Source: a bacterium
GTDB lineage: Archaea; Nanobdellota; Nanobdellia; Pacearchaeales; GW2011-AR1
DNA length: 64,000 nucleotides
Assembly: GCA_036833455.1 (NCBI GenBank)
Contig: DAITPU010000001.1
Coordinates: 7,549 to 71,548, forward strand
Direction: 5' to 3'
The notes below the pieces were generated by a model. That model worked only from the letters and a program-made list of their open reading frames with translations, made no database searches and was not told the DNA's origin. A program made the position numbers and the translations under genes. This document shows positions 1-34,113 of the stretch, one piece after another (the stretch's first letter is position 1; every line of letters starts with the position of its first letter).

Positions 1-2900
1 TGCCGTCGTAGAATCATTCAAATCAAAAGGTAAATTCAAAACAGCCCAAGAGGTTCCATTCAACCTCCAATCTGTAATATTATAAATTAAATCTTCATCT
101 AAATCTGTTGAATTAGAAATATAAACACTCAAATTTTCAAAAGTAGTATTAGTTCCCGAAGAGGAATTTAAAATAACTATTGGAAAAGTTGGAGCGCTAT
201 TAACTTGTTCACCTAAGATAGTCAAATTAGAACTTAAAACTGAAGTTCCTTCCGAAGAAAAATTAGTTGGAGTTACCATTACTGACCAATTTTCTCCAAC
301 TGAAGTTTCTTGCGAAACAATTGTTTCGATTGATTTATTATTTAATCCAGCTTGATAAATAGCACTAATTTGTTCTGCTGAAAGTGCTTCATCAAATATC
401 ATTACTTCATCTATTGAACCATTAAAATAATTACCTGCTGCATTAAATGTAGCAAAAAGTAAATTATTGGTAGATTTCCCGACAGAAAAACTTTTACTTA
501 AAGAAAAAACATTACTTCCATCTAAATAACCTTCCCACTTACTTCCATTATAAGAATAAACTATATGGTGCCAATTTGTATCTGAAAGAGTTATTCCAGA
601 ACCAGTTCGAGGATTATCTCCTGTATAAACCCCAGAATAAAATTCAACTTGATTATTTACATACTCCCAAATTAAAGAATAAACATTATCTGTTCCAGCA
701 TCATTCCTTTTAGATAAAAGATATCTATTAGTTTGACTTAAATCGCTAGGTTTAATCCAAAGTGAAAAAGCAAAATTATTTGTTAAATTTAAAGTTCCAT
801 TATAAGGAACGGTAATATAATCCCCTCCATCAAAATTGTAACATCCTCCCACTTTACAATTTGAACTCCAAGTTGGTTTTGCAGTTGATGAAGCCAGAGT
901 TCCATTATTTCCATAAGTTGAATAATCTTTTGCCGTCGTAGAATCATTCAAATCAAAGGGCATATTCAAAACTGCCCAAGAGGTTCCATTTAATCTCCAA
1001 TCTGTAATAGTTGCATTCGTATCAGTTGAAGAAATATACGCCGTTAAATTTTCATTAGTAGTATTAGTTCCCGAAGAGGAATTTAGAATTACTGAATTTA
1101 TTATTGGATTTCTTACTAAATCCAAAATAGTCAAATTAGAACTTAAAACTGAAGTTCCTTCTAAACTTAAATCTGTGGGAGTGGATCTAACTGACCAATT
1201 TTCTCCAACTGAAGTTTCTTGCGAAACAATTGTTTCGATTGATTGATTATTTAATCCAGCTTGATAAATAGCACTAATTTGTTCTGCTGAAAGTGCTCTA
1301 TTGAAGATCATAAATTCATCAATTCTTCCTTTAAAATATTTTTCACCATTATTAGCTTGATCTGCCGCTCCTATTTGATGGCTTGTATAGGTTCCAGACC
1401 AATCAAGAGTAATATTTCCGATAGTATTATTTGCTACACGAGAACCATTAAAATAAATTTTCATTTCATTTCCATCATAAGTTACCACAAGATGATGCCA
1501 TTGATTAGTTGAAGGGAGAGAAGCCGGATTCCATGCACAAGAATATCTAGTAGTAGAACTATGTAAATCATAATATATCGTGTTTAAACTTCCCCAACTA
1601 CTTATTGCAATACCTCCATCATAATTGTTGTTAGTAAGATGTTGCCCCCCATAAAAACCAGGATAAGTGTTTTGAGACCAATTTGAAGAATTTATCCACA
1701 TCACAATTGAGTGAGGTCCTGTTTGTCTAGCTGAATCTGGAAGAGTTATTTTATCGTTACTTCCATCAAAACTATAACATCCTCCAACCTTACAATTTGA
1801 AACCCAGGTTGCTCCACTTACAGAACCATTATTACTCAATGTAGAATAATCTTTAGTTACACTAGAATTTTCTAAATCAAAGGGCATATTCATCGCTGCC
1901 CAAGAAGCACCGTTTACTCTCCAATCCGTAATCGTTGAATTTGAATTAGTTGAATTTATATATGCGGTTAAATTCTCATTAGTAGTATTAGTTCCCGAAG
2001 AGGAATTTAGAATTACTGAATTAACAGTAGGGATTCCTACAAAATTTTCATAAGGTAAAACATTTCCTGAATTGTAAAGAGTTTGAATTTCCGATAAACT
2101 TAACTCTCTATTCCAAATTGCCCATTCATCATAATCTATATTTATTACGGCCCCCCCTCCAAGCAAACCAAGATTTGCATTAACTGTAGTTGCACCGCTT
2201 GTAGTCCTATTATAAGCTGAAACTGCATTAACATAAAGTTTTACATGGCTTGAACTATTCATTGTAATAACCACATGATACCATGTGTCTGCAGAAAAAT
2301 TTACTGAAGATGAATATTGAACCCAAGTTCCACTTGGCCTATCAGTAACATAAAAAACATAATTAGCTCCATCCAATTTAGTTCCTACAAAAAAGTTTAG
2401 ATTAGCTGCATTATTTGCATATTGCCCCCAAAATGCTCCTGGATTAGAATTATTACTCCTAACCCAAAAACTATGTGTAAAAGCTGAAGTTCTACTCTGT
2501 AATGCCCCTAAAGCAAGTCCTTGGTCATTAGTATTTCTTCCTCTAATTCTTAAAGCATTATTTTCTTTTCCACTAATCCAACTATATGTAAAAATAGCAG
2601 TTCTATTATCTGAAGCATGACTATCATATGCAGTACTTCCACTTGATTCATCTAACTTCCAATAAGAAACTAATCCGTTAGTTAAATTATATGAAGGATC
2701 AACAGCCAAATCACTAACAACTCTACTCTCGTCGGCAAAACTAAAATTCAAAACAGCGTATCCTGCTATATTCATAAATGAACTAAACTCTCCTGTATCC
2801 AAACAAGAATAATTTTCAACAAAAAATTTCAAAGGCTTAACACTTTCATTTATTTCCGAATATTTTAAAATTTCTTCATTTTCAGTAATAATATACAAAT
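1..2900 (-). repeat. In-frame tandem DNA repeats of about 910-930 bp (at least 3 copies) inside the giant surface-protein gene
   Basis: Exact 27-mer tgccgtcgtagaatcattcaaatcaaa occurs at 1 and 931. The 44-mer ttctccaactgaagtttcttgcgaaacaattgtttcgattgatt occurs at 291 and 1201. tattagttcccgaagaggaattta occurs at about 150, 1062 and 1985. Each unit encodes one LamG-like module. Confidence 0.8.
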
Positions 2901-4644
2901 CATCAATTAAATTTTCCTCTCCACACTTCAAATTTAAAAATTCCATTTCATCTTCAGTTTCTAAATTATCCTTAGGAATTTCTTCAAAAAATGCATTAGG
3001 AGAATAAATTGTTAAATTTCCAACTCCAGTAGTATTAAAATAAACTTTCCAAAGATCTCCATCTTTCAAATATTCTAAAGGATTCAAAACAGTTATAGTA
3101 ATTTCAAAAGTTTGATTAGAAAGATGAGGTGCAATCCACTCAACATAATCATAAAGCCCGTTTCCATTTAAATCATAAAACTCGTAACTCTCAATATATT
3201 TCTCTTCTTCCACCCAATAAATCTTAAATTCTGTTCCTTCTCTAAATTCTAATTCTTTTGAAATTTCTGCAAAAACTAAAACATTTTCATAATGAATATT
3301 TTCCGGTCCAACAATTTTTACAATTTTTCCTTTAGAAGTTTCTTCTTCCAAAGAATAAGGAGCAGGAGTTTCATATTCAATAACAACTAATTCTTTAGTA
3401 TTGTCAAGAACTAACTCCAAAGAGTTCTCTCTTTCCAAAATTTCAAATTCTTCTCCGACAGAAAAACCCGTAAAAACAAAAATCTTAGAAAAGAAATTTT
3501 TAATTCCCTCAAAAAAACCCTCTCCAGATTCAGAAATAGAATATCCCGTTAAAAAACTTCTAGAAGTTTCACCTTTTTCTCTAAACATTTCTTGATTATA
3601 ATCTTCTAACTTGTCTTCTATCTTTTCTGCCTTCGTTCCAGTTTTAATTTCAATTTTTTCAGAGTTAATAGGAATTTCAACTTTAACTTTTGTAGAATTT
3701 ATTTCCTCTAAATTTATTTTTTTAACCCAACGAACAGGTTTTCCTAAAACAATATTTGAATTAAGAGTTTCAATACTTTCATTATTCAGACCAAAAATTT
3801 CTTCTTCCAAAAGAGTTTCATTTAATTCAGATTCATTTAAGTTTTCATCTAATTCAGTTTGATTTAAACTTTCATTAAGTTCGGTTTCATTTAGTTGAAA
3901 TTCTTCTAAAGTTTGATTTACTTCAGTTTGATTTAAATTTTCTTGAAAAGAACTTCCCCCAGAACTAAAATCAAAGTTATTTTCTGTTTCCTCTAAAGGT
4001 TTTTCAGGAATAAACTCTGAATCATTAATTGAAATATTTTCAAGAATCTCAATTTCTCCAGAATCATTTAAAATTTCATCTTCAAATCCACTCTCTTTCA
4101 TTTCTTGGTTATCTTCAGTAATATCTCCTTCTACTTTTTCTTGAGTACTCTCTCCTTCTACTCCTTGAAAAACTTCCTCAGAATCTTCCTCAGAAATTTG
4201 TTCTTCTAAGTCAAGATTAGGGTTTTCATCAGAAACTTCATCTGAAGTAATCTCTTCTTCTACATTCCCTTCTTCTGAATTAGAAAAAGATTCATCTGTT
4301 AAACTCTTACTTCCGGTAGATATCTCCCTTTCAGAAGAAACTCCTTCTGAATCTTCTACCATAAAACCAGTTAAAGAAGAATAACTTTTAGAAATAGAAT
4401 CAAAAATTTTTTCAAATCCCAATTTTTCTTTATCAAAAGAATTTTCTCCGTAAGAAATAAAAGAAAAAACTCCTAAAATCAGGATTACACTACATAAAAA
4501 AATTAAAAAGAAGGGAGTTTTTTTCTTGGGTTTATAATCTTTTAAATATTTAGAAACAATATTCCCCTCTGAATCTCTATAGCTTTCATAATAGTATGGT
4601 CCAAAAACTTTATCTCCTCTTTTAATATACCTTTTATACACCAT
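1..4644 (-). CDS. Giant secreted or surface protein, 3'-partial (more than 1540 aa in window). It has an N-terminal TM anchor, an acidic NETELNE-type low-complexity linker and at least 3 tandem LamG/concanavalin-like jelly-roll modules.
   Basis: Manual reverse-complement translation from ATG at 4644 (MVYKRYIKRGDKVFGPYYYESYRDSEGNIVSKYLKDYKPKKKTPFFLIFLCSVILILGVFSF...) reads without stops to the window start. Repeated modules contain W..HHLVVTYDGNEMKIYFNG...IDEFMIFNRALSAEQISAIYQAG, typical of the Laminin_G_3 / concanavalin-like fold. It is not in the ORF track because it runs off the edge. Confidence 0.75.
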   Translation of the reverse strand, partial: MVYKRYIKRGDKVFGPYYYESYRDSEGNIVSKYLKDYKPKKKTPFFLIFLCSVILILGVFSFISYGENSFDKEKLGFEKIFDSISKSYSSLTGFMVEDSEGVSSEREISTGSKSLTDESFSNSEEGNVEEEITSDEVSDENPNLDLEEQISEEDSEEVFQGVEGESTQEKVEGDITEDNQEMKESGFEDEILNDSGEIEILENISINDSEFIPEKPLEETENNFDFSSGGSSFQENLNQTEVNQTLEEFQLNETELNESLNQTELDENLNESELNETLLEEEIFGLNNESIETLNSNIVLGKPVRWVKKINLEEINSTKVKVEIPINSEKIEIKTGTKAEKIEDKLEDYNQEMFREKGETSRSFLTGYSISESGEGFFEGIKNFFSKIFVFTGFSVGEEFEILERENSLELVLDNTKELVVIEYETPAPYSLEEETSKGKIVKIVGPENIHYENVLVFAEISKELEFREGTEFKIYWVEEEKYIESYEFYDLNGNGLYDYVEWIAPHLSNQTFEITITVLNPLEYLKDGDLWKVYFNTTGVGNLTIYSPNAFFEEIPKDNLETEDEMEFLNLKCGEENLIDDLYIITENEEILKYSEINESVKPLKFFVENYSCLDTGEFSSFMNIAGYAVLNFSFADESRVVSDLAVDPSYNLTNGLVSYWKLDESSGSTAYDSHASDNRTAIFTYSWISGKENNALRIRGRNTNDQGLALGALQSRTSAFTHSFWVRSNNSNPGAFWGQYANNAANLNFFVGTKLDGANYVFYVTDRPSGTWVQYSSSVNFSADTWYHVVITMNSSSHVKLYVNAVSAYNRTTSGATTVNANLGLLGGGAVINIDYDEWAIWNRELSLSEIQTLYNSGNVLPYENFVGIPTVNSVILNSSSGTNTTNENLTAYINSTNSNSTITDWRVNGASWAAMNMPFDLENSSVTKDYSTLSNNGSVSGATWVSNCKVGGCYSFDGSNDKITLPDSARQTGPHSIVMWINSSNWSQNTYPGFYGGQHLTNNNYDGGIAISSWGSLNTIYYDLHSSTTRYSCAWNPASLPSTNQWHHLVVTYDGNEMKIYFNGSRVANNTIGNITLDWSGTYTSHQIGAADQANNGEKYFKGRIDEFMIFNRALSAEQISAIYQAGLNNQSIETIVSQETSVGENWSVRSTPTDLSLEGTSVLSSNLTILDLVRNPIINSVILNSSSGTNTTNENLTAYISSTDTNATITDWRLNGTSWAVLNMPFDLNDSTTAKDYSTYGNNGTLASSTAKPTWSSNCKVGGCYNFDGGDYITVPYNGTLNLTNNFAFSLWIKPSDLSQTNRYLLSKRNDAGTDNVYSLIWEYVNNQVEFYSGVYTGDNPRTGSGITLSDTNWHHIVYSYNGSKWEGYLDGSNVFSLSKSFSVGKSTNNLLFATFNAAGNYFNGSIDEVMIFDEALSAEQISAIYQAGLNNKSIETIVSQETSVGENWSVMVTPTNFSSEGTSVLSSNLTILGEQVNSAPTFPIVILNSSSGTNTTFENLSVYISNSTDLDEDLIYNITDWRLNGTSWAVLNLPFDLNDSTTA

Positions 4645-4719
4645 CTTTTTTCAAATAAATTAAGAAAAATGTATATTTAAACCTTATTCTTGTAGTGTAA
4701 TTACTTTATTGAAGATAAA

Positions 4720-5904
4720 TCACCTTGTAATAATTTCTAAAGAATCCCTATGTTTTAAAAGATAATCTTTGCCTAAGGCCATTTTTGTTTTTGCATTAAT
4801 TGCTTTTATAAAATTTTTACCAAAATCAGTGTGTAAAAAATAAGCAAAATCTAAAGCAGTCGAACCTTTTGGAAGTAAAAAACAATCTGGGAGTATATTC
4901 CCTTTTGAATCTCCCAATTTATTTGCAGAACCCGGAAAAATAGCCAAATAACCTAATAAATCAAAAACAACCCTATTCAAAATTTCCTGGATTCCTGTTC
5001 CAAATTCATACTTCTCTAAAACATCTCCTTTTATTTTATTTAATGCTTCTACTTGTTTTTCTCCTAAATCTTTCAAAACTTTAAACGCTCTTTCACCAGG
5101 AATATAATCTATTAAACCCGCCTTAGATGCTTGTCTAAGTGCAAGTTCAGAATCTGCAGAACAAGGAATAAAAATTAAATGAGGAAATTCTTTAATCACT
5201 CTTTCATAATTTTCTCTTCCAGAGGCAATATCTATTTTATTTGCAGCAACAATCATTGGTTTAGAAATATGCCTTAACTCCGTTGAAAAAACCTTTAATT
5301 GGTTTTCATTCCAATTAGAGCATCTTGGGGGAAGATTTAACTTTGAAAGAACTGCTTTAACTTGTTCTTCATTAACTTTTAAACCCGAAAATTGTCTTGC
5401 AATAGCTTCTGAAAGTTTTTGCCCTTCCATATCTACTTTTCTTGAAAAACCCGGCCAAACTTTCATTAAAATATTGTAATACCAATTAGTCAATTCTTCT
5501 TCTAAAAATTTAACATCTTCTGAAGGATTATGATTTTCAGTAGGTTTTCCTTCTAAATCTGTAGTTCCAGAAATATCTACAATATGTATAAAAGCGTCCG
5601 CTTGTCGAAGATCATCTAAAAATTTATTTCCTAATCCTTTTCCTTCCGAAGCCCCGGGAACTAATCCCGCAACATCCATTAAATCCACTGGAACAAATCT
5701 ATTTGAATTTAAACAAAATCCATGATTAGGATTGCACTTAACTCCAAAATCTTTATCGATGCATTCAACTTTAACATAACCAACACCATGGTTTGCTTTT
5801 ATAGTTGTAAAAGGATAAGAAGCAATTTCAACTTCTGCTAAAGTGGCTGCTTTAAAAAAAGTGCTCTTTCCAACTGAAGGTTTTCCAACTAATCCTAATA
5901 ACAT
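4720..5904 (-). CDS. OBG/HflX-superfamily GTPase (YchF/DRG-like) with a C-terminal TGS domain
   Basis: G1 GKPSVGKST is at the N-terminus and G4 is NKID. There is a large insertion between G3 and G4. The C-terminal TGS-like segment reads GSTALDFAYFLHTDFGKNFIKA. Confidence 0.7.
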   Translation of the reverse strand: MLLGLVGKPSVGKSTFFKAATLAEVEIASYPFTTIKANHGVGYVKVECIDKDFGVKCNPNHGFCLNSNRFVPVDLMDVAGLVPGASEGKGLGNKFLDDLRQADAFIHIVDISGTTDLEGKPTENHNPSEDVKFLEEELTNWYYNILMKVWPGFSRKVDMEGQKLSEAIARQFSGLKVNEEQVKAVLSKLNLPPRCSNWNENQLKVFSTELRHISKPMIVAANKIDIASGRENYERVIKEFPHLIFIPCSADSELALRQASKAGLIDYIPGERAFKVLKDLGEKQVEALNKIKGDVLEKYEFGTGIQEILNRVVFDLLGYLAIFPGSANKLGDSKGNILPDCFLLPKGSTALDFAYFLHTDFGKNFIKAINAKTKMALGKDYLLKHRDSLEIITR

Positions 5905-5941
5905 AAAAACAAAATAAAAACATAATTTAAAACCATTTCTA

Positions 5942-7387
5942 TTAATCTAATTTAGGAATTTCTATAGAATCCCGTGAAATCTTACGGGCAACCGCAGCTT
6001 TTTTGATTTGCTCTTCCTTCTTTTTATTAAAAATTATTATTGGTCTATTGAATTTTGAATAATGTAATTTCCAAATTACATAAAATAAGATTAGAGAGAG
6101 AAGTAAAACGACAATTATCCAAGATAAAAGAGAAACAACTTCTACAGCAAAAGTATCATAACTACTTGCAGTTACATTTCCTGGAGCTAAAATACGAGTA
6201 TAGAAAAGATAATTCCCAATAGGAATATCCTTAGGCACATCTATATAAAAGACCCCATTATGAGTTCTATTTATTGCAAAATCTTCTTTTTTAATAGTAT
6301 ATTCTTTACCCTCAAAATCTACAATTTTATAAATAAACTCTATATCAAAATTTCTAAGTTCTCCCATATTAATCATGCTAACTTGTGCACGAACTCTTCC
6401 TCCGGGATTTATATATTTTTTAATAACTTCTGTTCTTATATCAAATAAAGCTCCTCTATCTTTAACATCCAAAATAATTCTTACTTGTTGTTCAAAATCT
6501 TCAGATTTGAATAAAATGTATCCAACATAAACATCAGCATAAACTCTATTAGAAATATAAATATCTAAATTTAAAGTTACATTTTCTCCTGGATAAACAA
6601 GTACATTTTTAGATTCCGGAAAAACAAAATCACTAACTCCGAAAACATAATTTTGAATTTCAAAAGAACTTGAACCATTATTTACAATAGTTAATTCTTT
6701 TTTAAAATAAGTTCCTTTATCCATCTTAAATGGAATAAAATCTGGGACAAGATAGAATGTTTTTTGTGAAGGAACGACTCCCGGAGGAGAATCCCCTCCA
6801 CCACCGCCCCCTCCTCCTGAAGGAGGAGTTGGAGGAGTTACTGAACAATCTGCAGGACAAGATGCAGCGGTTTCTCCAGGTTCACAAACTCCATTTCCAC
6901 ATACATAAACAGGAGGATCATATATTTCAACTACACTTGAATTAACCCAGTCAGAAAAAGAACTTCCAGAATAAAACTGAACAGAACATTTCCAAGCATT
7001 TCCCGAAGATAAATTTCCATTTCCTAAAACACTTGAAAAAGTACTTCCATTAACATAATTGTTACTAAAATTTTGACTAAAATTAAGAATATCCCATTTA
7101 TACCAACGAACTGAAACATTAACTTTAGTTTTAGAAGAATCAGAAATAAATGCGGAACAACTTAAATCTATATTTGATTTATTTGAACCATCTAAAGAAA
7201 CTAAATTCACATTTAAAGGATCACTTAATTTTGAAATCAAGCCTAAATCAAAAAAAAATCCTTCTATATTTGATCCAGGATTTATTATTAAATTATTATC
7301 TCCTCCTGAATTTATAGAGATTATATCTGCAGAAACAATTGAAAAAAAAATTAAAGAAAATATCCAAAAATAAAGAAATCTTTTCAT
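5942..7387 (-). CDS. Secreted surface protein with signal peptide, Cys motif CGNGVCEPGETAASCPADC, a poly-Gly/Pro linker, CARDB-like beta domains, and a C-terminal TM anchor with a basic tail
   Basis: The N-terminus is hydrophobic. It has GGGGGGGG and a PTPP linker. The C-terminus reads LLSWIIVVLLLSLILFYVIWKL followed by KKKEEQIKK. It forms an operon-like tandem with the two downstream genes. Confidence 0.5.
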   Translation of the reverse strand: MKRFLYFWIFSLIFFSIVSADIISINSGGDNNLIINPGSNIEGFFFDLGLISKLSDPLNVNLVSLDGSNKSNIDLSCSAFISDSSKTKVNVSVRWYKWDILNFSQNFSNNYVNGSTFSSVLGNGNLSSGNAWKCSVQFYSGSSFSDWVNSSVVEIYDPPVYVCGNGVCEPGETAASCPADCSVTPPTPPSGGGGGGGGDSPPGVVPSQKTFYLVPDFIPFKMDKGTYFKKELTIVNNGSSSFEIQNYVFGVSDFVFPESKNVLVYPGENVTLNLDIYISNRVYADVYVGYILFKSEDFEQQVRIILDVKDRGALFDIRTEVIKKYINPGGRVRAQVSMINMGELRNFDIEFIYKIVDFEGKEYTIKKEDFAINRTHNGVFYIDVPKDIPIGNYLFYTRILAPGNVTASSYDTFAVEVVSLLSWIIVVLLLSLILFYVIWKLHYSKFNRPIIIFNKKKEEQIKKAAVARKISRDSIEIPKLD

Positions 7388-7388
7388 T

Positions 7389-10300
7389 TTAACTTATTTT
7401 GATTTTTCCTCCGGAAGCTATATATAAAATTGAATCGATAGGGGGATATCCCATATTTTTTGTGTAAATAGTTGAATTGATCGTACAATTTCCTATTCCA
7501 GAAAAAAATAATTTATTCAAACCTAAATTCGTATTTAATGAAATTATACAAAAGTCCCCCATAGAAATATTCCAATCTCCAGAACCAGAATAAATACAAC
7601 TATCAAAGGAAAGTATTCTTTTTGTAGAACTATTAACCCAAGAAGAATTATAAGTTCCGTCGGAAGCTAAACAACTAAGAATCCAATCTTGACCTGCAGA
7701 AGTATTTTCACTAGATATATTTGCAACATTAACTTCAAAACTTTCAGAATATTCTCCAATATTTCCACTTAGATTTTCAATTCCATCCACATACCATTTA
7801 TAATGGTAGGTTAAATTCTGTTTTTCTATATCTGTCGCGTTACAATACCCTCTAAGAGTATCATTATAGTAAGAAAAAAGAGGTAAAATTAAAGAAGAAA
7901 CGATAAACGGATTTGGAGAATTTATCAAAACAGAATTTGATTGAACTCTATAATTATTATCAAAATCTTCATTAGTGGGAGTAACTCCGGCAATCCAAGT
8001 TTCACCTGGGGAAGTGTGAACATTCTCCAATATATCTAAATCTTTTGCTCCCATCCCGTACCAATATAATCTTTCAATTTCTGAAGGAGTTAAAGTCAAA
8101 TTATAAATTACAAATTCATCTAATTGACCAATAAAATACCCCCATCCTCCTGCATCTCCTCCTAAAGTCAAACTTGAAGAAGGGATTGTTCCCACCCAAC
8201 CAGATTCAACTGCCGAATTTTCTTGAACTCCATCTACATAAAGAGTAAAATTATTTTCTGGTTTATCATAAGTTAAGAGAGCATGATGCCAGTTTGTTAT
8301 TGAAGATCCATTACCATTAACTTGACTTGTATTTACTAAACTTGTTCCTAATAAACTAAATCTATCTGAAATTATAAATCTTATTTTTCCAGAACTAATT
8401 TCAAAATGAAATCCATCATATCCTCCATCATCACAAACTCCTTCCTCACACATTGCAAGAATTGTTCCAGAATCAGAATAGGTATTTATCCAAAAAGATA
8501 AACTAAAACTCTGGGCATACAAATCGAAATCATTCATAGTTGTATTTATGTAATCATTTCCATCAAAACTATAAGCTCCTCCAACCTTTCCTTCCTTAAC
8601 CCAAGTCGCTCCGTGTATACTTCCGTCGTATCCATTAAATCCATAATCCTTAACTGAAGAAGAATCATTCTTGTTAAAAGCGTATTTTATTATCTCAACA
8701 CCTCTTCCAGAGTTATCCCAATCACTAACATAAGAAACAGCATTTTCAGGATAACACTGACCAACTGAAGAACTTGTGTTTCCCGTATAAAAATTTGAAA
8801 TTTTAAGTGCATCAGTAGCAGAAATATTTCCACTATTATCCCAATCTCCGCAACATAAATGAACATTTTCATCATAACAAGATATTATTTCAACAAAAAT
8901 AGCTTGTGCTAAAAAAGAATCTTCACTATCTATCTTTCCATCTCCATTCAAATCTCCTTTCAACTGACCAGGACGACAAACAACTTCACAACTTGAACTA
9001 TCAGCATCTTCCAAATAATCAAAATGTAAAGTTAAATTATCCGTAGTAAAGTTGTAAGAGCTCGTAGTGTTTAAATAAGGAACTAAAGGGAAATAAATTC
9101 CTTTAACAGAACTATTCAACCAAGAAGAATTATCTTCTCCATCATATGCTAAACAACTTAAAATCCAGTTTTCACCTGAAGTTGTTAAAGAGCTAGAGAT
9201 ATTTGCAACATTTATCTCGGCTCCAGAAGCATGACCTCCCGCCGTAACTCCTGAACTATTTAAAACATTATTCTTATACCAAGAATAGTAATAAGTTAGC
9301 GTATCTCCATCGGCATCGGTTGCATTACAATATCCTTTAAGAGTATCAGAAGAATATCTTATCGAAGGTAAAATATTTGATTCAATAATAATTGGAGGTA
9401 CATTGCTTATAGTTAAAACAGAACTATTAACCCAAGAAGAATTTTCTAAAAAATCAGAAGCGAGGCAACTTAAAGTCCAATTCTCTTCTTTTGATGTGAT
9501 TGAACTTGAAACATTTGCAACATTTATTTCAGCTCCCGAAGAATAATTTCCTTCTTTTTTACCAGAAAGATTCAAACTTCCATTTTTATACCAAAGATAA
9601 TAATAGGTTAAATTATTATCCTCTAAATCACTTGCATTACAATATCCTTTAAGAGTATCATTCGTATAAGCTACGGAAGGAAATATTGTAGAATTTTCCA
9701 TCTCTGGAGCATTATTATAAATAAAAGGGTATGTGAGAGGATCCCCTTCATTCCAGATAAGTTCAAACTCTTCAAAATCCATAGAATAATTATCATAAAT
9801 TCCAAAATAATCTATCTTTGAACCATTTAACGAATAATCTTGTTCTGAAATTTCTTGATCTGGATTATTTATTCTTAACCCTATATGGTTTTTATAATTA
9901 GAATAATTTAAGGAATTATTCCCATTGTATTCCTGAGTTTCATTTAAAACATTTTCTTCATTAGCAATAAAAATTTTTCCAACCCCATAATCATCTCCAT
10001 AAGCTTCTCTAGAAAATCCAATTAGATTCCAAGTTCCCAATTGAACAGAATTTGTAGAAGTATAAATTCCGCTTTCCGGACCATCTGGATAAACTGCAGA
10101 TGAATTACCGCTGACTAACCTACCAGAAATAGTTCTATCTGTATTAATCCATAATCCAAAACCTACATTTAAAGAATCTTCTCCCTCTGAATTAAAACCA
10201 TCATCCAAAATCCAAATTTCTTTATCTAAAGATTCTGGAACATAAACCAAAGCTAAGTAACTAAAATGGGTTCCGGACATGACCCAAAAATTTTCTTGAC

Positions 10301-10622
10301 TTCCAAAATCCACATAATTTTCTCCATCAAATTGAATTGCCCCATTTACTAATCCTTCACTCCAAAGACTATCTTTTGTTAATTCTCCATTAAAATCTTC
10401 TTTTATTAAAGCATTAACTTCAATTCCTGAACTTTCATTAAATTCATAAAAAGCAACCAATTTGCTACTAGAATTCAAATAAAGAGCAGGATATGCCGGT
10501 AAATTTCTTTCCTCTCCAAAAATTCCAAAAAAACTTCCTCCATAAGAAGGATTAATTATAAAAAAAAATATTCCCAAGACAGAAATTATTCCTAAAACAA
10601 AAAGTAAAATTTTTTTTTTCAT
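7389..10622 (-). CDS. 1077-aa secreted surface protein with an N-terminal LamG-like domain, three PKD-like repeats, a canonical dockerin, a second LamG-like domain and a fourth PKD-like repeat
   Basis: It has a signal peptide. The dockerin has two Ca-binding loops, DLNGDGKIDSED and DWDNSGNISATD, each followed by a helix. The LamG-like motif is WHHALLTYDKPENNFTLYVDG...LDEFVIYNLTLTPSEIERLY. A roughly 80-aa unit YSSDTLKGYCNATD...NWILSCLA.D is repeated three times, with a fourth copy near the C-terminus. NxS/T sequons are very frequent. Confidence 0.7.
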   Translation of the reverse strand: MKKKILLFVLGIISVLGIFFFIINPSYGGSFFGIFGEERNLPAYPALYLNSSSKLVAFYEFNESSGIEVNALIKEDFNGELTKDSLWSEGLVNGAIQFDGENYVDFGSQENFWVMSGTHFSYLALVYVPESLDKEIWILDDGFNSEGEDSLNVGFGLWINTDRTISGRLVSGNSSAVYPDGPESGIYTSTNSVQLGTWNLIGFSREAYGDDYGVGKIFIANEENVLNETQEYNGNNSLNYSNYKNHIGLRINNPDQEISEQDYSLNGSKIDYFGIYDNYSMDFEEFELIWNEGDPLTYPFIYNNAPEMENSTIFPSVAYTNDTLKGYCNASDLEDNNLTYYYLWYKNGSLNLSGKKEGNYSSGAEINVANVSSSITSKEENWTLSCLASDFLENSSWVNSSVLTISNVPPIIIESNILPSIRYSSDTLKGYCNATDADGDTLTYYYSWYKNNVLNSSGVTAGGHASGAEINVANISSSLTTSGENWILSCLAYDGEDNSSWLNSSVKGIYFPLVPYLNTTSSYNFTTDNLTLHFDYLEDADSSSCEVVCRPGQLKGDLNGDGKIDSEDSFLAQAIFVEIISCYDENVHLCCGDWDNSGNISATDALKISNFYTGNTSSSVGQCYPENAVSYVSDWDNSGRGVEIIKYAFNKNDSSSVKDYGFNGYDGSIHGATWVKEGKVGGAYSFDGNDYINTTMNDFDLYAQSFSLSFWINTYSDSGTILAMCEEGVCDDGGYDGFHFEISSGKIRFIISDRFSLLGTSLVNTSQVNGNGSSITNWHHALLTYDKPENNFTLYVDGVQENSAVESGWVGTIPSSSLTLGGDAGGWGYFIGQLDEFVIYNLTLTPSEIERLYWYGMGAKDLDILENVHTSPGETWIAGVTPTNEDFDNNYRVQSNSVLINSPNPFIVSSLILPLFSYYNDTLRGYCNATDIEKQNLTYHYKWYVDGIENLSGNIGEYSESFEVNVANISSENTSAGQDWILSCLASDGTYNSSWVNSSTKRILSFDSCIYSGSGDWNISMGDFCIISLNTNLGLNKLFFSGIGNCTINSTIYTKNMGYPPIDSILYIASGGKIKIS

Positions 10623-13250
10623 TTAAGCGCTACAAATTGAACCTCCACTGGAAAAGATTATACAATTATCCACCGTTACATTTCCTGAAAGAGTAGATGT
10701 TGAAGTTACTTCAAAAGTTCCATTAACATGAAGGGTTTTAGAAGGTTTGTTGTGATTTATTCCCACTCTTGCATTATCAAACTGACCATAAATCAAAGGA
10801 ATTGAATTCACATTTGCTTGATGAAGAATAAATACATTTGAAGCGGTATTCCCATAGCCTGCTTGATAACCCAAAGCAATTACATTATTTCCTGAATTAG
10901 AATAAAGAGCTTCATCCCCTATAGAAATTGTTTTACTTCCCAAATTATAAGCTCCAGAATAATAACCAAAAGCAACTTGATTATCCCCTTCATTAGAAAG
11001 CCCGGCCCCATATCCAAAAGCGGATTGGTAATCTCCTAAGTTATACCTTCCTGAAGAAATTCCAAATGCACTTTGCCATGATGCTTTATTAGAAGACCCA
11101 GAATAATAACCAAACGCTGTTTGTTCAAAAGAACTTTCATTTCCTGCTGCTGCTCCCCCGAACGTATTCGTATATGAATTAGAAGTTCTCAAAATAGGAA
11201 TTCCTCCTTGCATATAAGAATATCCGTCTGGAATATTCACACTTCCTGCAATAACATCTAATTTATGTGAAGGTGCTCCTCCAATACCTATATTCCCTGA
11301 TGCTCCTTGATAAATTTCAGAATTGTTTAGAGAAGAAGTTCCATTCCATAAAGGAATTCTCATTGAAGTTCCTGCTCCAGAAAGATAAGTAGGAATCGTA
11401 CTTGAATTATAAAATCCGTAAGGATTTACTAAAGGATAGTAATTAGCTAAAGAAGAATTGAAAGCTAAAGTTCCATTGTAAGCTAATGGATCTGATTCAG
11501 AAGTTAAAAAACTTGAAGTATCAATAGACCAATTAGCTATCAATCCTGTTGAATTCCAATCTTTAATTAAACCTGATGAATTATATTGATGATAAGTTGA
11601 ATTATAAGTAGAACTCCAAGATGAATTATACAAACTAAAATTTCCGCTCCAGAATGGATCTGTTTCTGTATAACTTTGTAAATATCTGTCATCACTTTGT
11701 GTTTTGTTATAAAAAGTGTCATTAATCCAAGCATCTTCATAATTTCCAACGGGCAAAGTTGTAGAATTATAATATCCGAATGGGTTGCTTGTTAAATATA
11801 AGCTTCCATTGTAAGCTAATGAATCTGTTTCAGAAGTTAAAACTCCACTTAAACAATTTCCTCCTTCAATACAAATATCTCCCGTAGAATTTATTGATCC
11901 AGACACTCCTAAATTATTTCCAACATAAGCATTTCTACCTAAATATAAATCTCTCCACCTTAAACTAGAATTTCCTAAATCAAACTGATTATGATAACCT
12001 ATTTCTGGAACAAGGGATCCATTAATCTGAAGATTATTTACTGAAATAGAATTTAATGTATAAAAATAACCCGTTTGAGCATATATAGCTCCTCCAATAA
12101 TGCTTAATCCATTTGAAGTCCACCCCCCATTAAAATCAAATTGTCCGAAAACCGAATTATTCAAAGGCATAAAAAAACTAGAATCATAACCATCCAATTT
12201 ATCTGTATCTAAAAAACTATCACTCCAATTAATTATCAACCCTGTTGAGTTCCAATCTTTAATTAAACCTGATGAATTATATTGATGATAAGTTAAATTA
12301 TAAGTAGAACTCCAACTCTCATTATAAGCTGTAAAATTAGAAGCCCATAGTGGGTCTATTTCTGTATAACTTTGTAGGTATCTATCATCACTTTGTGTTT
12401 TATTATAAAAAGTATCATTAATCCAAGCATCGTCGTAACTTCCGACGGGCAAAGTCGTAGAATTATAATATCCATAAGGATTATTTATTGAATAATATAA
12501 ACTATCTGCATAAGTTTTGTTCCATGAAAACAAAGATAAATAATTTGAATAATTAGAAGTCCATAATGGATCTGTTTCTGAAGTTAAAACTCCACTTAAA
12601 CAATTTCCTCCTTCAATACAAATATCTCCTGTTGCATTAATAGTTCCATTTGATAAAATATCTCCTGCCACATGCAATAATCTCTGAGGAGAATTAGTTC
12701 CAATTCCCACATTTCCTGAAGTAAAAAAAAGATTTCCTCCATTCAGCTCCCAATAATTAATTTGACTTAAATTAATTGCAGAAGTATTAATGTCTGTCAA
12801 ATACCTTCCGCTTCCCAAAAAATAAAAAGCACTCAAATTATAAGTTCCAAAATTCAAAGAAGAATCAATTTCTATTCCAGAACTGTTAACATATTTAGAA
12901 CGAAAAGAGTAAGGCGTCCTAGAAATTTTAGTTGAATTTATTAAAGATCCATTACGATAATAACACAAATAATATTGTTGATCATAATTTAAATTAGTAT
13001 TTTGAAGATAGTAAGAAATAATCCCTCTGGAATCGGTAGTTAAAGTTTCAGAATCAGAATAGATAACATTCAAACAATTCGAATCTGTAGTAATATTAAA
13101 AACAAAGTTATATGTTCCAGCTAAAATATTGCCTTCTGAATCAGTTGTCTGAATATTCAAATGAAGTTCATCTAAAATTTCTGCTGAAGAAGTAAAACTA
13201 ATAAGAAAAAAAATCAAAAATAAACCCAGGAAATACCTCTTTGTTACCAT
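10623..13250 (-). CDS. 875-aa secreted, heavily N-glycosylated surface protein with an internal duplication of about 240 aa and C-terminal YadA-head-like repeats
   Basis: It has a signal peptide. The GDICIEGGNCLSGVLTSETD...WINDTFYNKTQSDDRYLQSYTE block occurs twice. SAFGY.AG..N.G.NQVAFGYYSG...VIALGYQAG repeats resemble the left-handed beta-roll head of trimeric adhesins and phage fibres. More than 60 NxS/T sequons are present. Confidence 0.6.
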   Translation of the reverse strand: MVTKRYFLGLFLIFFLISFTSSAEILDELHLNIQTTDSEGNILAGTYNFVFNITTDSNCLNVIYSDSETLTTDSRGIISYYLQNTNLNYDQQYYLCYYRNGSLINSTKISRTPYSFRSKYVNSSGIEIDSSLNFGTYNLSAFYFLGSGRYLTDINTSAINLSQINYWELNGGNLFFTSGNVGIGTNSPQRLLHVAGDILSNGTINATGDICIEGGNCLSGVLTSETDPLWTSNYSNYLSLFSWNKTYADSLYYSINNPYGYYNSTTLPVGSYDDAWINDTFYNKTQSDDRYLQSYTEIDPLWASNFTAYNESWSSTYNLTYHQYNSSGLIKDWNSTGLIINWSDSFLDTDKLDGYDSSFFMPLNNSVFGQFDFNGGWTSNGLSIIGGAIYAQTGYFYTLNSISVNNLQINGSLVPEIGYHNQFDLGNSSLRWRDLYLGRNAYVGNNLGVSGSINSTGDICIEGGNCLSGVLTSETDSLAYNGSLYLTSNPFGYYNSTTLPVGNYEDAWINDTFYNKTQSDDRYLQSYTETDPFWSGNFSLYNSSWSSTYNSTYHQYNSSGLIKDWNSTGLIANWSIDTSSFLTSESDPLAYNGTLAFNSSLANYYPLVNPYGFYNSSTIPTYLSGAGTSMRIPLWNGTSSLNNSEIYQGASGNIGIGGAPSHKLDVIAGSVNIPDGYSYMQGGIPILRTSNSYTNTFGGAAAGNESSFEQTAFGYYSGSSNKASWQSAFGISSGRYNLGDYQSAFGYGAGLSNEGDNQVAFGYYSGAYNLGSKTISIGDEALYSNSGNNVIALGYQAGYGNTASNVFILHQANVNSIPLIYGQFDNARVGINHNKPSKTLHVNGTFEVTSTSTLSGNVTVDNCIIFSSGGSICSA

Positions 13251-13773: not shown

Positions 13774-13894
13774 TGATCCTGCTGAGATTTGAACTCAGGA
13801 CCTCTGGCTCTCTTAGAAAGCTCCAAGAGATAGCAACCCTAACGAATTACTTTCTTATAAGACCAGCGCTCTAACCAGGCTGAGCTACAGGATC
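13774..13894 (-). tRNA. tRNA-Ile (anticodon UAU) with a 47-48 nt intron 3' of the anticodon; CCA not encoded
   Basis: Manual cloverleaf on the minus strand reads GATCCTG-TA-GCTC-AGCCTGGTTA-GAGC-G-CTGGT-CTTATAA-[intron GAAAG..AAGAG]-GCCAG-AGGTC-CTGAG-TTCAAAT-CTCAG-CAGGATC-A. All stems pair. Confidence 0.7.
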
Positions 13895-13936: not shown

Positions 13937-15313
13937 TTATTCTCTAGGTTTAGATTGAGCTAAAAAATAAGCCATGTTAGAATCAACTTCTTTAGACTTT
14001 CTATCTTTTTTATAAGTTCCTTTAGTCCTAGGCAAAGCAAATTTACCTAAAACTCCTACTTTAGAATAGATTATATAAGATAAAATCCTCTTTTCTCCAG
14101 GTTCTAGTCTATCAAATTCCCATTCAAAAATCTTACTTCCTTTGTGGAACCTTTTAGGTATTTCTCCTCCAAAATGATTATATACATCAACTAATGGGGG
14201 TAATCTATCTATAATTTTAACATTTTCTAGATGATCGTTAGCTTCTAAGATGATAGAAACTTTCAATCCAAATTCCCCTCCTTTGGCATTAACAAAATTA
14301 ACTTTTTTCTTAATTAAAAGATCTCTTTTAGAATATTTATCTGTTAAATACCAAACCAAAATTAAAAACAATATAACTGCAAAAGGGAGAAACCAGTTTG
14401 TTTTAGTTTTAACTTCTAATTTTTCCCCAGGATTTAATTCTTGAACCCAAGTATAATAAATCTTAGAACCCTGCCTTTCTACAAAATCCGGTTCAATACT
14501 GAATGTAGTAAAAAGTCTAGAAAAGATATTTTTTTTGGCAGTTATTACTGCTGGCAGGGGAATATTTCCCTCATTACTTTTCTCTTGAATTTGAGTCAAG
14601 ATAAAAAAACCATAATTTTGTTCCCGAGTTGAAATTAAACTTTTTTCTTCAAATTCCAATTTACCTTCAAGCTCTACTTCAGAATCTTTAACTTTTAGAA
14701 GAGCATTTATACTATAAAAACCAGCCCCCAAACTACTAAAATCCTTCTTATTTAGCGAAACTTTAACACTCTTTTTTTCAGAAGGACCTAAATCAAAACT
14801 ACCCGAAGTTTTAAAGAAAGCCGAATTAAATTCAAAATCTAAATCGCTAAAATAAAAGTTAACTTTGTTATAGACATAAATATCTGTATATTTAGATTCT
14901 GGATCAATTTTTCCAGCACTTATTTCAAAAGCATCTTCCAAATCAATTATATTCACAATTAACTCTTCTTTAATTTCTTCACCTTTTGAAGATTGAATGT
15001 AATATTCAAAAAGAACGTATTTTCTCAAATGAAGATCTTCTCTAGGATGCAAATAGAAAGTAACTTCTTTTGTTTCCCCCGATTTTATTTTAAAACTCTC
15101 CATAGGAGTTATTCCTCCTGCAAAAAGAGAATAAATATGAAAATTATCTGTTGGCCCATTGTTAGTAATATTAATTTTAAACGTCGCTGGATCTCCCGTA
15201 CCAAGAACCAAAAATTCATTTGAACTAACTTTCTGAACTTCCAAATCAATAGCAGATACTAAAGGAAATAAAATCAAACTAAAAAATAAAATCCCCAAAA
15301 TCACTTTTTTCAT
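13937..15313 (-). CDS. Membrane protein with a signal peptide, an extracellular CARDB/DUF11-like beta domain, one TM helix and a cytoplasmic domain of about 150 aa
   Basis: The N-terminus is hydrophobic. LVLGTGDPATFKINITNNGPTDNF is present. The TM helix FLPFAVILFLILVWYL is at about residue 305. Confidence 0.4.
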   Translation of the reverse strand: MKKVILGILFFSLILFPLVSAIDLEVQKVSSNEFLVLGTGDPATFKINITNNGPTDNFHIYSLFAGGITPMESFKIKSGETKEVTFYLHPREDLHLRKYVLFEYYIQSSKGEEIKEELIVNIIDLEDAFEISAGKIDPESKYTDIYVYNKVNFYFSDLDFEFNSAFFKTSGSFDLGPSEKKSVKVSLNKKDFSSLGAGFYSINALLKVKDSEVELEGKLEFEEKSLISTREQNYGFFILTQIQEKSNEGNIPLPAVITAKKNIFSRLFTTFSIEPDFVERQGSKIYYTWVQELNPGEKLEVKTKTNWFLPFAVILFLILVWYLTDKYSKRDLLIKKKVNFVNAKGGEFGLKVSIILEANDHLENVKIIDRLPPLVDVYNHFGGEIPKRFHKGSKIFEWEFDRLEPGEKRILSYIIYSKVGVLGKFALPRTKGTYKKDRKSKEVDSNMAYFLAQSKPRE

Positions 15314-33967: not shown

Positions 33968-34113
33968 TCCATCCACCCAGATTCGAACTGGGAACCTCTC
34001 GGGCACTGCTATGCCTTTTAGTTCTTGACTTTTAGGGTTTCATCGTATATCTTACTAGACACTCCGCCTTAGGATATCTACAGCCAAGCGCTCTGCCATT
34101 GAGCTATGGATGG
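33968..34113 (-). tRNA. tRNA-Tyr (anticodon GUA) with the archaeal/eukaryal C1-G72 pair and an intron of about 74 nt
   Basis: Cloverleaf reads CCATCCA-TA-GCTC-AATGGCA-GAGC-G-CTTGG-CTGTAGA-[intron]-CCGAG-AGGTT-CCCAG-TTCGAAT-CTGGG-TGGATGG-A. Confidence 0.7.

Follow-up and report, generated by a model that had tools for sequence, protein, structure and literature searches.

At one end of the window, the whole 64,000-nucleotide stretch of DNA that was analysed, lie four genes for surface proteins, all called on the minus strand: a giant protein that runs off the window edge and proteins of 481, 1077 and 875 residues (p481, p1077 and p875; Table 1). The first-pass annotation had described four consecutive genes in one block, the giant being partial and longer than 1540 residues. 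Strand and sizes hold (1548 residues of the giant lie in the window), but the gene of an Obg-like GTPase stands between the giant and the p481/p1077/p875 trio (5942..13250, minus strand). This GTPase, which has no sequons, is a housekeeping protein and not a surface protein, and it is the conserved anchor of the locus, with orthologues 68-81% identical in 80 DPANN loci. Its relatives come almost entirely from Pacearchaeota, Woesearchaeota and Nanoarchaeota MAGs, which agrees with the DPANN-like origin suspected at first and points to a Pacearchaeota-like archaeon. Two tRNA matches in the window far exceed tRNA length, which suggests introns. Window GC is about 29%; a foreign composition of the block was rejected, because its GC of 0.28-0.32 is that of the remaining window. 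TATA-like strings can be seen by eye upstream of p875, the GTPase gene and the giant and, in a genome of 71% A+T, were given no weight. A DGR target was considered and rejected, since repeat mismatches in 1-13.3 kb are of mixed type and not adenine-specific.

Table 1. Features of the surface-protein locus (positions in the window; residues are those of the protein named).
Feature	Position	Strand	Basis or remark
Giant, N-terminal 1548 aa	1..4644	(-)	ORF open at window edge
Giant LamG 3, residues ~1229-1432	349..960	(-)	Laminin_G_2 at 1329-1414; TafC LamG part 1229-1432
Giant LamG 2, residues 960-1124	1273..1767	(-)	Best Laminin_G_3 stretch, profile 1-151 of 151
Giant LamG 1, approximate limits	2095..2682	(-)	Laminin_G_3 stretch; limits from motif LVSYWKLDES...LYNSG
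Giant single TM / signal-anchor	4444..4515	(-)	Hydrophobic stretch PFFLIFLCSVILILGVFSFISYG
Giant cytoplasmic N-terminal tail, 43 aa	4516..4644	(-)	Motif MVYKRYIKRGxKxFGPYYYES
Obg-like GTPase (YchF/YGR210 type), 394 aa	4720..5904	(-)	Pfam YGR210-like_G4 E=8e-30, MMR_HSR1, TGS
p481, membrane-anchored surface protein	5942..7387	(-)	ORF; AF2 model
p481 C-terminal TM anchor	6053..6130	(-)	Model helix 420-472; hydrophobic stretch LLSWIIVVLLLSLILFYVIW
p481 conserved tandem beta-sandwiches, residues 210-415	6143..6760	(-)	pLDDT >90; family alignment
p481 module A, small Ig-like, residues 58-140	6968..7216	(-)	Common to giant and p1077
p1077, secreted multi-module lectin-type protein	7389..10622	(-)	ORF; profile searches; repeats
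p1077 third module A copy	7623-7955	(-)	Internal repeats, 49-65% identity
p1077 LamG, residues 687-849	8076..8564	(-)	Laminin_G_3 E=4.5e-22, 79.3 bits
p1077 internal dockerin, residues ~555-625	8748..8960	(-)	Ca-loop motifs DLNGDGKIDSED and DWDNSGNISATD
p1077 tandem module A x2, residues 300-510	9093..9725	(-)	Internal repeats, 49-65% identity
p875, secreted fibre-type protein	10623..13250	(-)	ORF; model; family search
p875 C-terminal beta-solenoid, residues ~690-830	10761..11183	(-)	AFGY repeats, 16-residue period
p875 duplicated fibre modules, residues 190-350 and 439-585	11496..12683	(-)	Self-comparison, 62-78% identical
p875-family N-terminal domain, Ig-like sandwich, residues 25-140	12831..13178	(-)	pLDDT 93-97
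SemiSWEET-like 3-TM protein, 108 aa	13447..13773	(+)	NCBIfam SemiSWEET_3 E=2.8e-15
tRNA-Ser(GCU), probably intron-containing	13774..13894	(-)	Distal border of variable slot

All four surface proteins carry a hydrophobic signal or anchor towards the N-terminus, as read from their sequences, and p481 also ends in a TM helix, so their description as signal- or TM-anchored stands. The high sequon density noted earlier is also borne out, at about twice the expectation from composition-shuffled sequences: 61 sequons against 29.9+/-4.3 in the giant, 46 against 18.3+/-3.7 in p1077, 42 against 20.6+/-3.8 in p875 and 11 against 4.6+/-2.0 in p481 (z ~5.6-7.5 for three of the four). Per 100 residues this amounts to 3.9-4.8 in the giant, p1077 and p875 and to 2.3 in p481, compared with 0-2.2 in the other window ORFs. 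Given this twofold excess, we infer that the four proteins are probably densely N-glycosylated. Their modules (LamG, discoidin, a BNR/sortilin-like propeller, Ig-like sandwiches, a dockerin and a beta-solenoid fibre) support their assignment as extracellular binding-type proteins, and domain profile searches detected in none of them a catalytic domain, glycoside hydrolases included.

The full giant, 3165 residues long, is found on a 100%-identical source contig (L002:11261-20758). The motif of its predicted cytoplasmic tail also begins four giant/LamG-like ORFs of related loci (L014, L048, L051 and L070). In the window, three LamG domains are joined by Ig-like linkers; past the edge follow two more LamG domains, an F5/8-type-C discoidin domain (F5_F8_type_C), Ig-like repeats, a BNR/sortilin-like propeller and an Fn3-like C-terminus, the Sortilin-Vps10/BNR and Ig/fn3 matches being weak. 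Laminin_G_3, whose curated cut-off is 27.6 bits, matches the window part with E=5e-65 (218.7 bits, three stretches) and the full protein with E=7e-100 (331.8 bits, five stretches); with the match in p1077, this confirms the LamG modules annotated at first, none being found in p481 or p875. LamG domains also tip TafC, a subunit of haloarchaeal Tat-fimbriae in which the LamG-like domain faces outward as the presumed adhesive end (PMC11821415). The NCBIfam TafC model does match the LamG parts of the giant (residues 1229-1432, E=1.5e-27, 96.7 bits, far under the 410-bit cut-off) and of p1077 (26.7 bits against the same cut-off), but it aligns only over profile positions ~150-362, its LamG part, and both proteins are without a TafA-like donor-strand domain and a Tat signal. 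Judged by these profiles, neither is a member of the TafC family. The small neighbour genes of relatives were considered as TasA/Taf-like fimbrial subunits and rejected, having no NCBIfam or Pfam support (best DUF4402, E=0.026).

From its signal onwards, p1077 consists of a first LamG-like domain, two copies of a small Ig-like module with a Cys pair (module A), a dockerin, a second LamG domain, a further module A and a Cys-containing C-terminal domain. The dockerin, the one annotated among the four proteins, is upheld: Dockerin_1 scores 22.9 bits on the whole protein, exactly the cut-off, and 28 bits (E=2.6e-6, two stretches) on the isolated segment. It shares 35% identity with the dockerin, clear at 43.7 bits, of p1310, an S8 protease (subtilase)/FG-GAP protein also encoded in the window, and both show the duplicated Ca-binding loop-helix motif known from dockerin-cohesin assemblies and archaeal non-cellulosomal dockerins. 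Unlike in dockerin-cohesin assemblies, the p1077 dockerin is internal and not C-terminal, and neither a cohesin nor a glycoside hydrolase was found in the window. We found nothing specific in the literature on dockerin/cohesin or YadA/tail-fibre modules in DPANN.

In p481, a signal peptide is followed by module A, a CGNGVCEPGE...C knot, a Pro/Gly linker, two beta-sandwich domains, the TM helix and a basic tail. Its AF2 model has a mean pLDDT of 80, exceeding 90 in the sandwich domains, and Foldseek matches it to tandem Ig/Fn3-like sandwiches such as RbmA, ASH domains and complement MG domains; across the family (64 homologues, some with DUF4215) residues 210-415 are best conserved. By protein comparison, module A connects three of the four proteins. 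The giant and p1077 share it together with LamG; the p481 copy is 43% identical over 104 residues to giant residues 2815-2917 and 27-32% identical to the p1077 copies. As p875 has no module in common with the other three, the claim that domain families recur across all four proteins holds for the giant, p1077 and p481 and fails for p875. The earlier label of module A, 'PKD-like', finds no support either: PKD has no match at E<=1 for isolated module-A copies or any whole protein, and the sole match, of 'ig' to the giant copy, is at 19.8 bits, below cut-off. Modelled as a six-strand sandwich (pLDDT ~80), module A appears to be an unclassified Ig-like sandwich. The labels CARDB and YadA_head had to be dropped in the same way, as their HMMs match none of the four proteins at permissive E-values or in isolated segments.

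The fourth protein, p875, combines a signal peptide, a conserved N-terminal domain, duplicated fibre modules and a C-terminal beta-solenoid of 16-residue repeats, so that its C-terminus is a soluble-type repeat region. Searches of its sequence against Pfam, NCBIfam, PHROG and PDB gave no match (PDB noise only, E ~0.9). In its model, 440 of the 875 residues have pLDDT <50, and Foldseek with the whole model gives weak, generic Ig-like matches to the N-domain only (E ~1e-2). The fibre modules carry the motifs GDICIEGGNCLS and ETDPLW...SWSSTYN and correspond to an 86% DNA repeat (11529-11777 / 12225-12473), and the solenoid, as modelled, resembles adhesin heads and tailspikes. A family search returned 255 matches. 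For the N-domain there are 445 cluster representatives at E<=1e-3, 113 of them at E<=1e-30; among the matches listed, it is placed at residues ~10-185, right after the signal, in nearly all of 150, and is 42-71% identical across the listed representatives in carriers of 130-5130 residues. HMMs confirm in such relatives a YadA_head (107.7 bits) with a dockerin (P0004, which also carries the fibre modules of p875), YadA_stalk (P0020, P0035), Peptidase_S74 (P0019, P0047) and the Chlorovirus glycoprotein repeat; a tail collar comes from precomputed annotation only. p875 belongs to an unnamed fibre family in which a conserved N-terminal domain is combined with variable fibre modules. Obligately trimeric modules in relatives (YadA head/stalk, endosialidase chaperone, tail collar) make it probable that the protein forms a homotrimeric fibre; these relatives have only the N-domain and some fibre modules in common with p875. 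Compared with the trimeric autotransporter adhesins of Gram-negative bacteria (YadA, UspA1, EibD, BoaA), p875 itself has no YadA head, stalk or anchor HMM match (nor one to S74 or collar) and no C-terminal beta-barrel translocator, archaea being without an outer membrane; its conserved end is N-terminal and not C-terminal, and its repeat period is 16 residues.

How variable the locus is can be read from 80 related loci with GTPase orthologues, 66 of them informative for p481. The p875-p1077-p481 block occupies a slot bounded by tRNA-Ser and the GTPase gene, and this slot is variable. In many other related loci tRNA-Ser abuts the GTPase gene directly upstream; in L015 the block is missing and thermosome-p168-p458 adjoin the GTPase gene, and in L022 and L069 the same genes lie near it, with one unrelated ORF between and again without the block. 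p1077, p875 and the giant are absent from the corresponding slot in most relatives. To call p481 accessory would be too simple, since its C-terminal two thirds represent a conserved family that lies immediately upstream of the GTPase gene in at least 18 of the 66 informative loci. The p481 family also recurs beside p875-like genes, all three being linked in L090 (p875-like, p481-like, GTPase); in L088 a p875-like gene is linked to those of a 2851-residue S74 fibre and a LamG protein. The slot also varies between strains, since strain L003 has a divergent allele limited to p481-p1077-p875, with DNA divergence of 3.5-5.9% in the block against 0.2-0.6% in the flanks and dS of 0.13-0.17 against 0.002-0.03. 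In this comparison dN/dS is 0.09-0.23, which argues that the block genes are functional and, being far under 1, does not point to diversifying selection; in p481, all 10 amino-acid differences fall within residues 335-461. The synteny comparison with related DPANN therefore bears out a block variable between species and strains, and the view of an accessory region is right for the slot contents and the L003 allele but not for the C-terminal two thirds of p481. The gene reported as a SemiSWEET directly after the block is indeed there, inside the slot, but it is transcribed divergently from p875, and its SemiSWEET_3 match of 56.3 bits is under the 100-bit cut-off; its size and hydrophobic pattern fit, and Pfam gives no match at E<=0.01. 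With homologues in only 3 of the 80 loci and adjacency on the opposite strand only, the proposed surface and nutrient-uptake theme is not sustained.

Taken together, we consider it moderately likely that the surface-protein genes at the tRNA-Ser/GTPase position, a set that changes with strain and species, encode a glycan-binding adhesion coat. Of its parts, p481 is held in the membrane by its C-terminal helix and displays two conserved beta-sandwiches and one exchangeable Ig-like module; p1077 and the giant are strings of carbohydrate-binding-type modules spaced by small Ig-like domains. The p875 N-domain could dock the fibre to a conserved cell partner, its variable distal part binding targets, and the p1077 dockerin might tether that protein to a cohesin-like partner. 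Jointly, the proteins would keep the archaeon attached to a host cell or a surface, and specificity could be altered by recombination in the slot that swaps modules, alleles or whole genes. Attachment to a host is suggested by the domain types and by the literature on other DPANN (PMC7443923, PMC5498576). In Ca. Nanohalobium constans LC1Nh and Ca. Mancarchaeum acidiphilum Mia14, large secreted LamG/ConA-like, PKD-containing proteins with many N-glycosylation sites are strain-specific, lie on genomic islands and have been proposed as attachment factors (PMC7443923, PMC5498576). The proteins described here are likewise large, secreted or anchored, LamG-bearing, sequon-rich and encoded on a variable island, the conserved part of p481 being the exception to its variability. 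They differ in several respects: (i), their phylum-level lineage is Pacearchaeota-like and has no cultivated member; (ii), they show no PKD HMM match and have extra discoidin, BNR-like propeller and dockerin modules; (iii), they are linked to the p875 fibre family and to the conserved, anchored p481 at the tRNA-Ser/GTPase slot.

Alternatively, these could be structural proteins of the envelope or coat, associated with an S-layer or forming a glycocalyx, that provide integrity and shielding, their variability being an escape from viruses or grazers in the style of 'metagenomic islands' and not a matter of host binding. We judge this unlikely, bearing in mind that it and the adhesion coat are not mutually exclusive. 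The conserved C-terminal domains and TM anchor of p481, syntenic with the GTPase gene, speak for it, and this conserved part might just as readily be a structural component of the envelope; archaeal envelope glycoproteins typically have dense sequons, the replacement of alleles under purifying selection is in keeping with surface-antigen-type islands, and a conserved signal- and TM-bearing protein, p458, adjoins the thermosome gene in relatives. However, modules of the LamG, discoidin, BNR-propeller, dockerin and fibre/solenoid types serve for binding and do not form lattices, and the absence of p1077, p875 and the giant from the slot in most relatives means that they are not essential envelope parts.

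Less probable still is a cellulosome-like harvest of polysaccharides or particles, with LamG and discoidin acting as CBMs that keep the cell on polymers, dockerin proteins (p1310 included) assembled on a scaffold and sugars taken up via SemiSWEET. Such a role would suit the two dockerin proteins of the window, the place of LamG within the concanavalin-A lectin/glucanase superfamily and the SemiSWEET-like gene adjoining the block; yet none of the four proteins has a glycoside hydrolase or other catalytic domain, there is no cohesin among the window proteins scanned, and the SemiSWEET gene is sub-cut-off, on the opposite strand and not conserved with the block. It is highly improbable that the p875-p1077-p481 cassette is the remnant of a virus or mobile element at tRNA-Ser, with p875 as a viral tail fibre or receptor-binding protein. 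The block does adjoin a tRNA gene and is absent there in relatives, and p875 relatives bear phage-type modules (Peptidase_S74 and the Chlorovirus glycoprotein repeat; tail collar by annotation only). Phage tail fibres and tailspikes also pair a conserved N-terminal attachment domain with exchangeable distal receptor-binding modules. Against this, members of the p875 family are chromosomal and have Sec-type signal peptides, p875, p481 and p1077 have no PHROG match, and the p875 peptide patterns match nothing in 2.9 million viral contigs, in a scan that is sensitive to close relatives only. Moreover, 1-15 kb are free of viral genes, such as those for an integrase, a capsid or a terminase, block GC equals that of the remaining window, and 1-13.7 kb hold no att-like partial copy of tRNA-Ser, only chance-level matches.

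DPANN archaea are considered to live bound to other cells, and to our knowledge neither hosts nor attachment molecules are known for the Pacearchaeota and Woesearchaeota, which are very abundant and uncultivated. A role of glycosylated, island-encoded LamG surface proteins as DPANN attachment factors has already been put forward in the literature, and the locus typifies a kind of DPANN surface/attachment locus that has been described before and is not a new system. The gain is incremental: a well-dissected example and a fibre N-domain family without a name, with 445 cluster representatives. Beyond the adhesion coat, we suggest, only tentatively, that p875 could stand for a family of modular archaeal surface fibres, probably trimeric and so far undescribed, whose strongly conserved N-domain of ~115 residues, for which there is no Pfam model, would plug into a conserved DPANN base (perhaps the p481 family), and whose distal parts would consist of interchangeable cassettes, bacterial YadA head/stalk and phage endosialidase-chaperone/collar modules among them, the tRNA-Ser/GTPase slot being a dedicated cassette-exchange site that re-targets attachment. 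If true, exchange at this slot would be a cellular counterpart of phage tail-fibre swapping. The lectin-type giants, the dockerin protein, the conserved anchored protein and the fibre family with its conserved base domain are candidates for binding and localisation work, and the variable slot, whose contents differ by species and strain, could mark host range in metagenomes.

Window 1-13250 is a real surface-protein locus, a conclusion that we regard as well supported, and ORF listing and translation confirm the gene sizes that the first-pass annotation had read from the sequence. That annotation described four consecutive surface genes; the minus-strand run in fact has five genes, with a 394-aa Obg-like GTPase, devoid of sequons, sitting inside it. 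The genes p875, p1077 and p481 (named by length in aa; hereafter the block) are separated by only 0-1 nt, with gaps of 37 nt before the GTPase and 75 nt before the gene of the giant protein. The ENA contig ERZ724101 NODE_9, 100% identical to the window across their overlap, starts at window 17565 and extends toward position 1; on this contig the full giant is one gene of 3165 aa. Window 17566-64000 (46 kb) lies beyond the contig's end, so the window must stem from a different assembly of this organism. Judging from sequence, the DPANN assignment of the organism holds: GTPase orthologues (68-81% identity) come almost exclusively from MAGs named Pacearchaeota, Woesearchaeota or Nanoarchaeota, and window GC is ~29%. 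One contig (DATJPO010000024.1) labelled 'Candidatus Omnitrophota bacterium' bears a 69%-identical archaeal GTPase copy; its bacterial name probably reflects faulty binning or mislabelling.

Features of the surface-protein locus and other features of the window
Feature	Position	Strand	Description
giant, N-terminal part	window edge to ATG at 4644	-	open frame, 1548 aa in window
giant, N-terminal motif	4516-4644	-	MVYKRYIKRGxKxFGPYYYES(Y/F)RD, cytoplasmic; a TM segment follows
Obg-like GTPase	4720-5904	-	394 aa; YGR210-like_G4 (E=8e-30), MMR_HSR1, TGS
p481	5942-7387	-	ORF listing, translation
p1077	7389-10622	-	ORF listing, translation
p875	10623-13250	-	ORF listing, translation
tRNA-Ser	13774-13894	-	121-nt match
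p458	13937-15313	-	signal peptide, weak DUF11-like start, TM near C-terminal third
transglutaminase/LapG-like protein	29909-31165	-	418 aa; N-terminal hydrophobic segment; 2.2 sequons per 100 aa
tRNA	33968-34113	-	146-nt match
matrixin-type metalloprotease	34387-35355	-	CARDB domain; N-terminal hydrophobic segment
CAP/SCP-domain protein	39359-40465	-	N-terminal hydrophobic segment
p1310	56659-60591	-	1310 aa, large secreted; I9 propeptide, subtilase S8, FG-GAP repeats, C-terminal dockerin

The interval between tRNA-Ser and the GTPase, 7.9 kb in the window and filled by a SemiSWEET-like gene, p875, p1077 and p481, acts as a recurrent insertion and exchange slot for surface-protein genes, without an integrase or att repeat. 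Gene content was compared across 80 GTPase-anchored loci (L-numbers). Many of the more distant genomes have tRNA-Ser immediately upstream of the GTPase; the block is absent from L015, where thermosome-p168-p458 adjoin the GTPase, and from L022 and L069, where one unrelated ORF intervenes. In the slot of the closest relatives, the gene just upstream of the GTPase is a p481-family member (at least 18 of 66 informative loci); three small secreted proteins missing from the window are encoded there too, and in some cases a p875-like gene or a LamG protein of 2103 aa is present. Only 2 of 72 loci have a giant-like gene immediately after the GTPase. In other genomes the same kinds of gene recur together, in the order p875-like, p481-like, GTPase in L090 and p875-like, 2851-aa S74 fibre, LamG protein with module A (described below) in L088. 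The contents of the slot thus change between loci, whereas two thirds of p481, the C-terminal part, are conserved in relatives. The accessory character proposed at first pass is supported, with variability in both genes and alleles and p481 as a partly conserved exception. Allelic turnover is seen against L003, a contig of the same species from another sample: DNA divergence is 0.19% (dS 0.002) in the N-terminal part of the giant and 0.59% (dS 0.03) in the GTPase, versus 3.5% (dS 0.13) in p481, 5.1% (dS 0.13) in p1077 and 5.9% (dS 0.17) in the C-terminal part of p875. Together with dN/dS of 0.09-0.23 for the last three, this pattern marks a divergent allele that was exchanged by recombination and is kept under purifying selection, rather than decaying genes or strong positive selection.

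A mobile or viral origin of the block was also tested and is unsupported: no integrase, viral gene or att-like tRNA fragment was found near it, its GC content equals that of the genome, and zero matches came from PHROG and from a viral-contig scan that detects close relatives only. The repeats show no DGR pattern, their mismatches not being adenine-specific. Both over-long tRNA matches (n=2) much exceed tRNA length, which at sequence level suggests introns in each; ARAGORN calls tRNA-Ser as 93 nt and misses the other. The relatives' three small genes (L011:1046-2957, L045:6319-8293, L007:260-2098) lie on the upstream side of the p481-like gene. The products of two are secreted, very sequon-rich proteins of ~195 aa (...TGxATEGSTTSNVS...WRFWLDIPAAQPSGDYNN...C); the third product, of ~200 aa, has a signal peptide and, at its C-terminus, a TM anchor. 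None has a family match (best DUF4402, E=0.026); one possibility is that they build a surface filament or coat for which the p481 family is the anchor.

Laminin_G_3 matches the giant strongly, at E=5e-65 and in three stretches for the window part; there are five stretches in the full protein, which also has an F5/8-type-C discoidin domain and weaker matches to a sortilin/BNR-like propeller and Ig/Fn3-like parts. Its N-terminal motif starts four giant/LamG-like ORFs of related DPANN loci as well (L014:1998-, L048:11443-, L051:13877-, L070:11639-) and could represent a conserved signal for sorting, or a handle on the cytoplasmic side. Within the giant gene, long DNA repeats that are 79-100% identical (window 1-2022; L002:13883-19698, on NODE_9), among them an exact one of 196 bp linking window positions 814-1009 with the part outside the window, suggest gene conversion or a recent duplication inside the gene; they are themselves a possible source of assembly error. 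In p1077, Laminin_G_3 is strong (E=4.5e-22); the score of its dockerin just equals the Pfam cut-off when the whole protein is scanned and reaches 28 bits (E=2.6e-6, two stretches) for the isolated segment, with two DxDxDG-type loops and 35% identity to the dockerin of the secreted p1310, which is unambiguous at 43.7 bits and for which no cohesin partner was found among the window proteins scanned. LamG, dockerin and a high sequon density, all proposed at first pass, are thus confirmed, sequons being ~2-fold over the composition-shuffled expectation in all four surface proteins (z 5.6-7.5 for three). The PKD and YadA labels found no such backing, as PKD, CARDB and YadA profiles gave zero matches to the four. 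The unit called 'PKD-like' is module A, ~100 aa with a Cys pair, present three times in p1077 (49-65% mutual identity) and once each in p481 and the giant (43% identical to each other). Modules are therefore shared by these three proteins, and p875 has nothing in common with them.

The AlphaFold model of p481 (59-sequence alignment, mean pLDDT 80) runs from a signal helix through module A (a small beta-sandwich, pLDDT ~80), a CGNGVCEPGE...C knot that is DUF4215-like in relatives, a Pro/Gly linker and two sandwiches (pLDDT >90) to a long C-terminal TM helix. Foldseek matched tandem Ig/Fn3-type sandwiches, including RbmA (TM 0.51-0.56 on target), ASH, integrin and complement MG domains; these folds are of the extracellular scaffold type, without a specific function.

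p875 itself has zero sequence matches in Pfam, NCBIfam, PHROG and PDB, and yet belongs to a large family: a word-indexed search gave 255 matches, and its N-terminal domain (residues 25-140) retrieved 445 cluster representatives at E<=1e-3, 113 of them at E<=1e-30. In nearly all matches listed this domain directly follows the N-terminal signal (42-71% identity, carriers of 130-5130 aa); the remainder of the proteins is variable. Rescans confirmed five YadA_head repeats and a dockerin in P0004, YadA_stalk in P0020 and P0035, an endosialidase chaperone in P0019 and P0047, and a Chlorovirus glycoprotein repeat in P0014, all relatives of p875; a tail-collar domain comes from precomputed annotation only. 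What p875 has in common with P0004 is the N-domain and 'GDICIxGGNCLS / ETxPLW...SWSSTYN' fibre modules, not the YadA head. Overall, 'adhesin-like' is fair for its fold class and family; p875 is no YadA-family member. Its model is confident only at the N-domain (pLDDT 93-97; generic Ig-like Foldseek matches only) and at residues ~700-800 (86-95), with 440 residues at pLDDT <50, as is common for trimeric fibres modelled as monomers.

Extracellular proteins are generally abundant in the window. Among them p458, with 0.2 sequons per 100 aa and a conserved place beside the thermosome gene in L015, L022 and L069, is a candidate conserved envelope protein contrasting with the variable block.

How the locus functions can be approached by analogy. 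Its proteins carry export signals, p481 a membrane anchor, and they combine lectin-type, dockerin, Ig-like and beta-solenoid modules with sequon excess, module sharing and turnover of genes and alleles. The attachment factors proposed for cultivated DPANN are LamG/PKD proteins that are secreted, N-glycosylated, strain-specific and encoded on genomic islands (PMC7443923, PMC5498576), and because of this analogy we favour host attachment. The surface proteins would be heavily N-glycosylated, p875 would be trimeric, docking might occur via its conserved N-domain and via the dockerin, and glycans of another cell could be bound. Models of haloarchaeal Tat-fimbriae likewise place a LamG domain at the outward-facing end (PMC11821415); of the TafC model only the LamG part matches window proteins, far below cut-off. 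Two other readings partly overlap with attachment. The proteins might form a structural glycoprotein coat whose variation is virus-driven, or serve polymer binding and nutrient capture; the SemiSWEET-like gene that had been linked to nutrient uptake is indeed adjacent, but adjacency is the whole of that link, as the gene is encoded on the other strand, falls short of the family cut-off score and finds homologues in just 3 of 80 related loci. The locus belongs to an already described kind and is therefore a further member of it. Its most poorly charted element is the fibre family of p875, which recurs near p481-family genes and the GTPase and whose conserved N-domain lacks a Pfam model.
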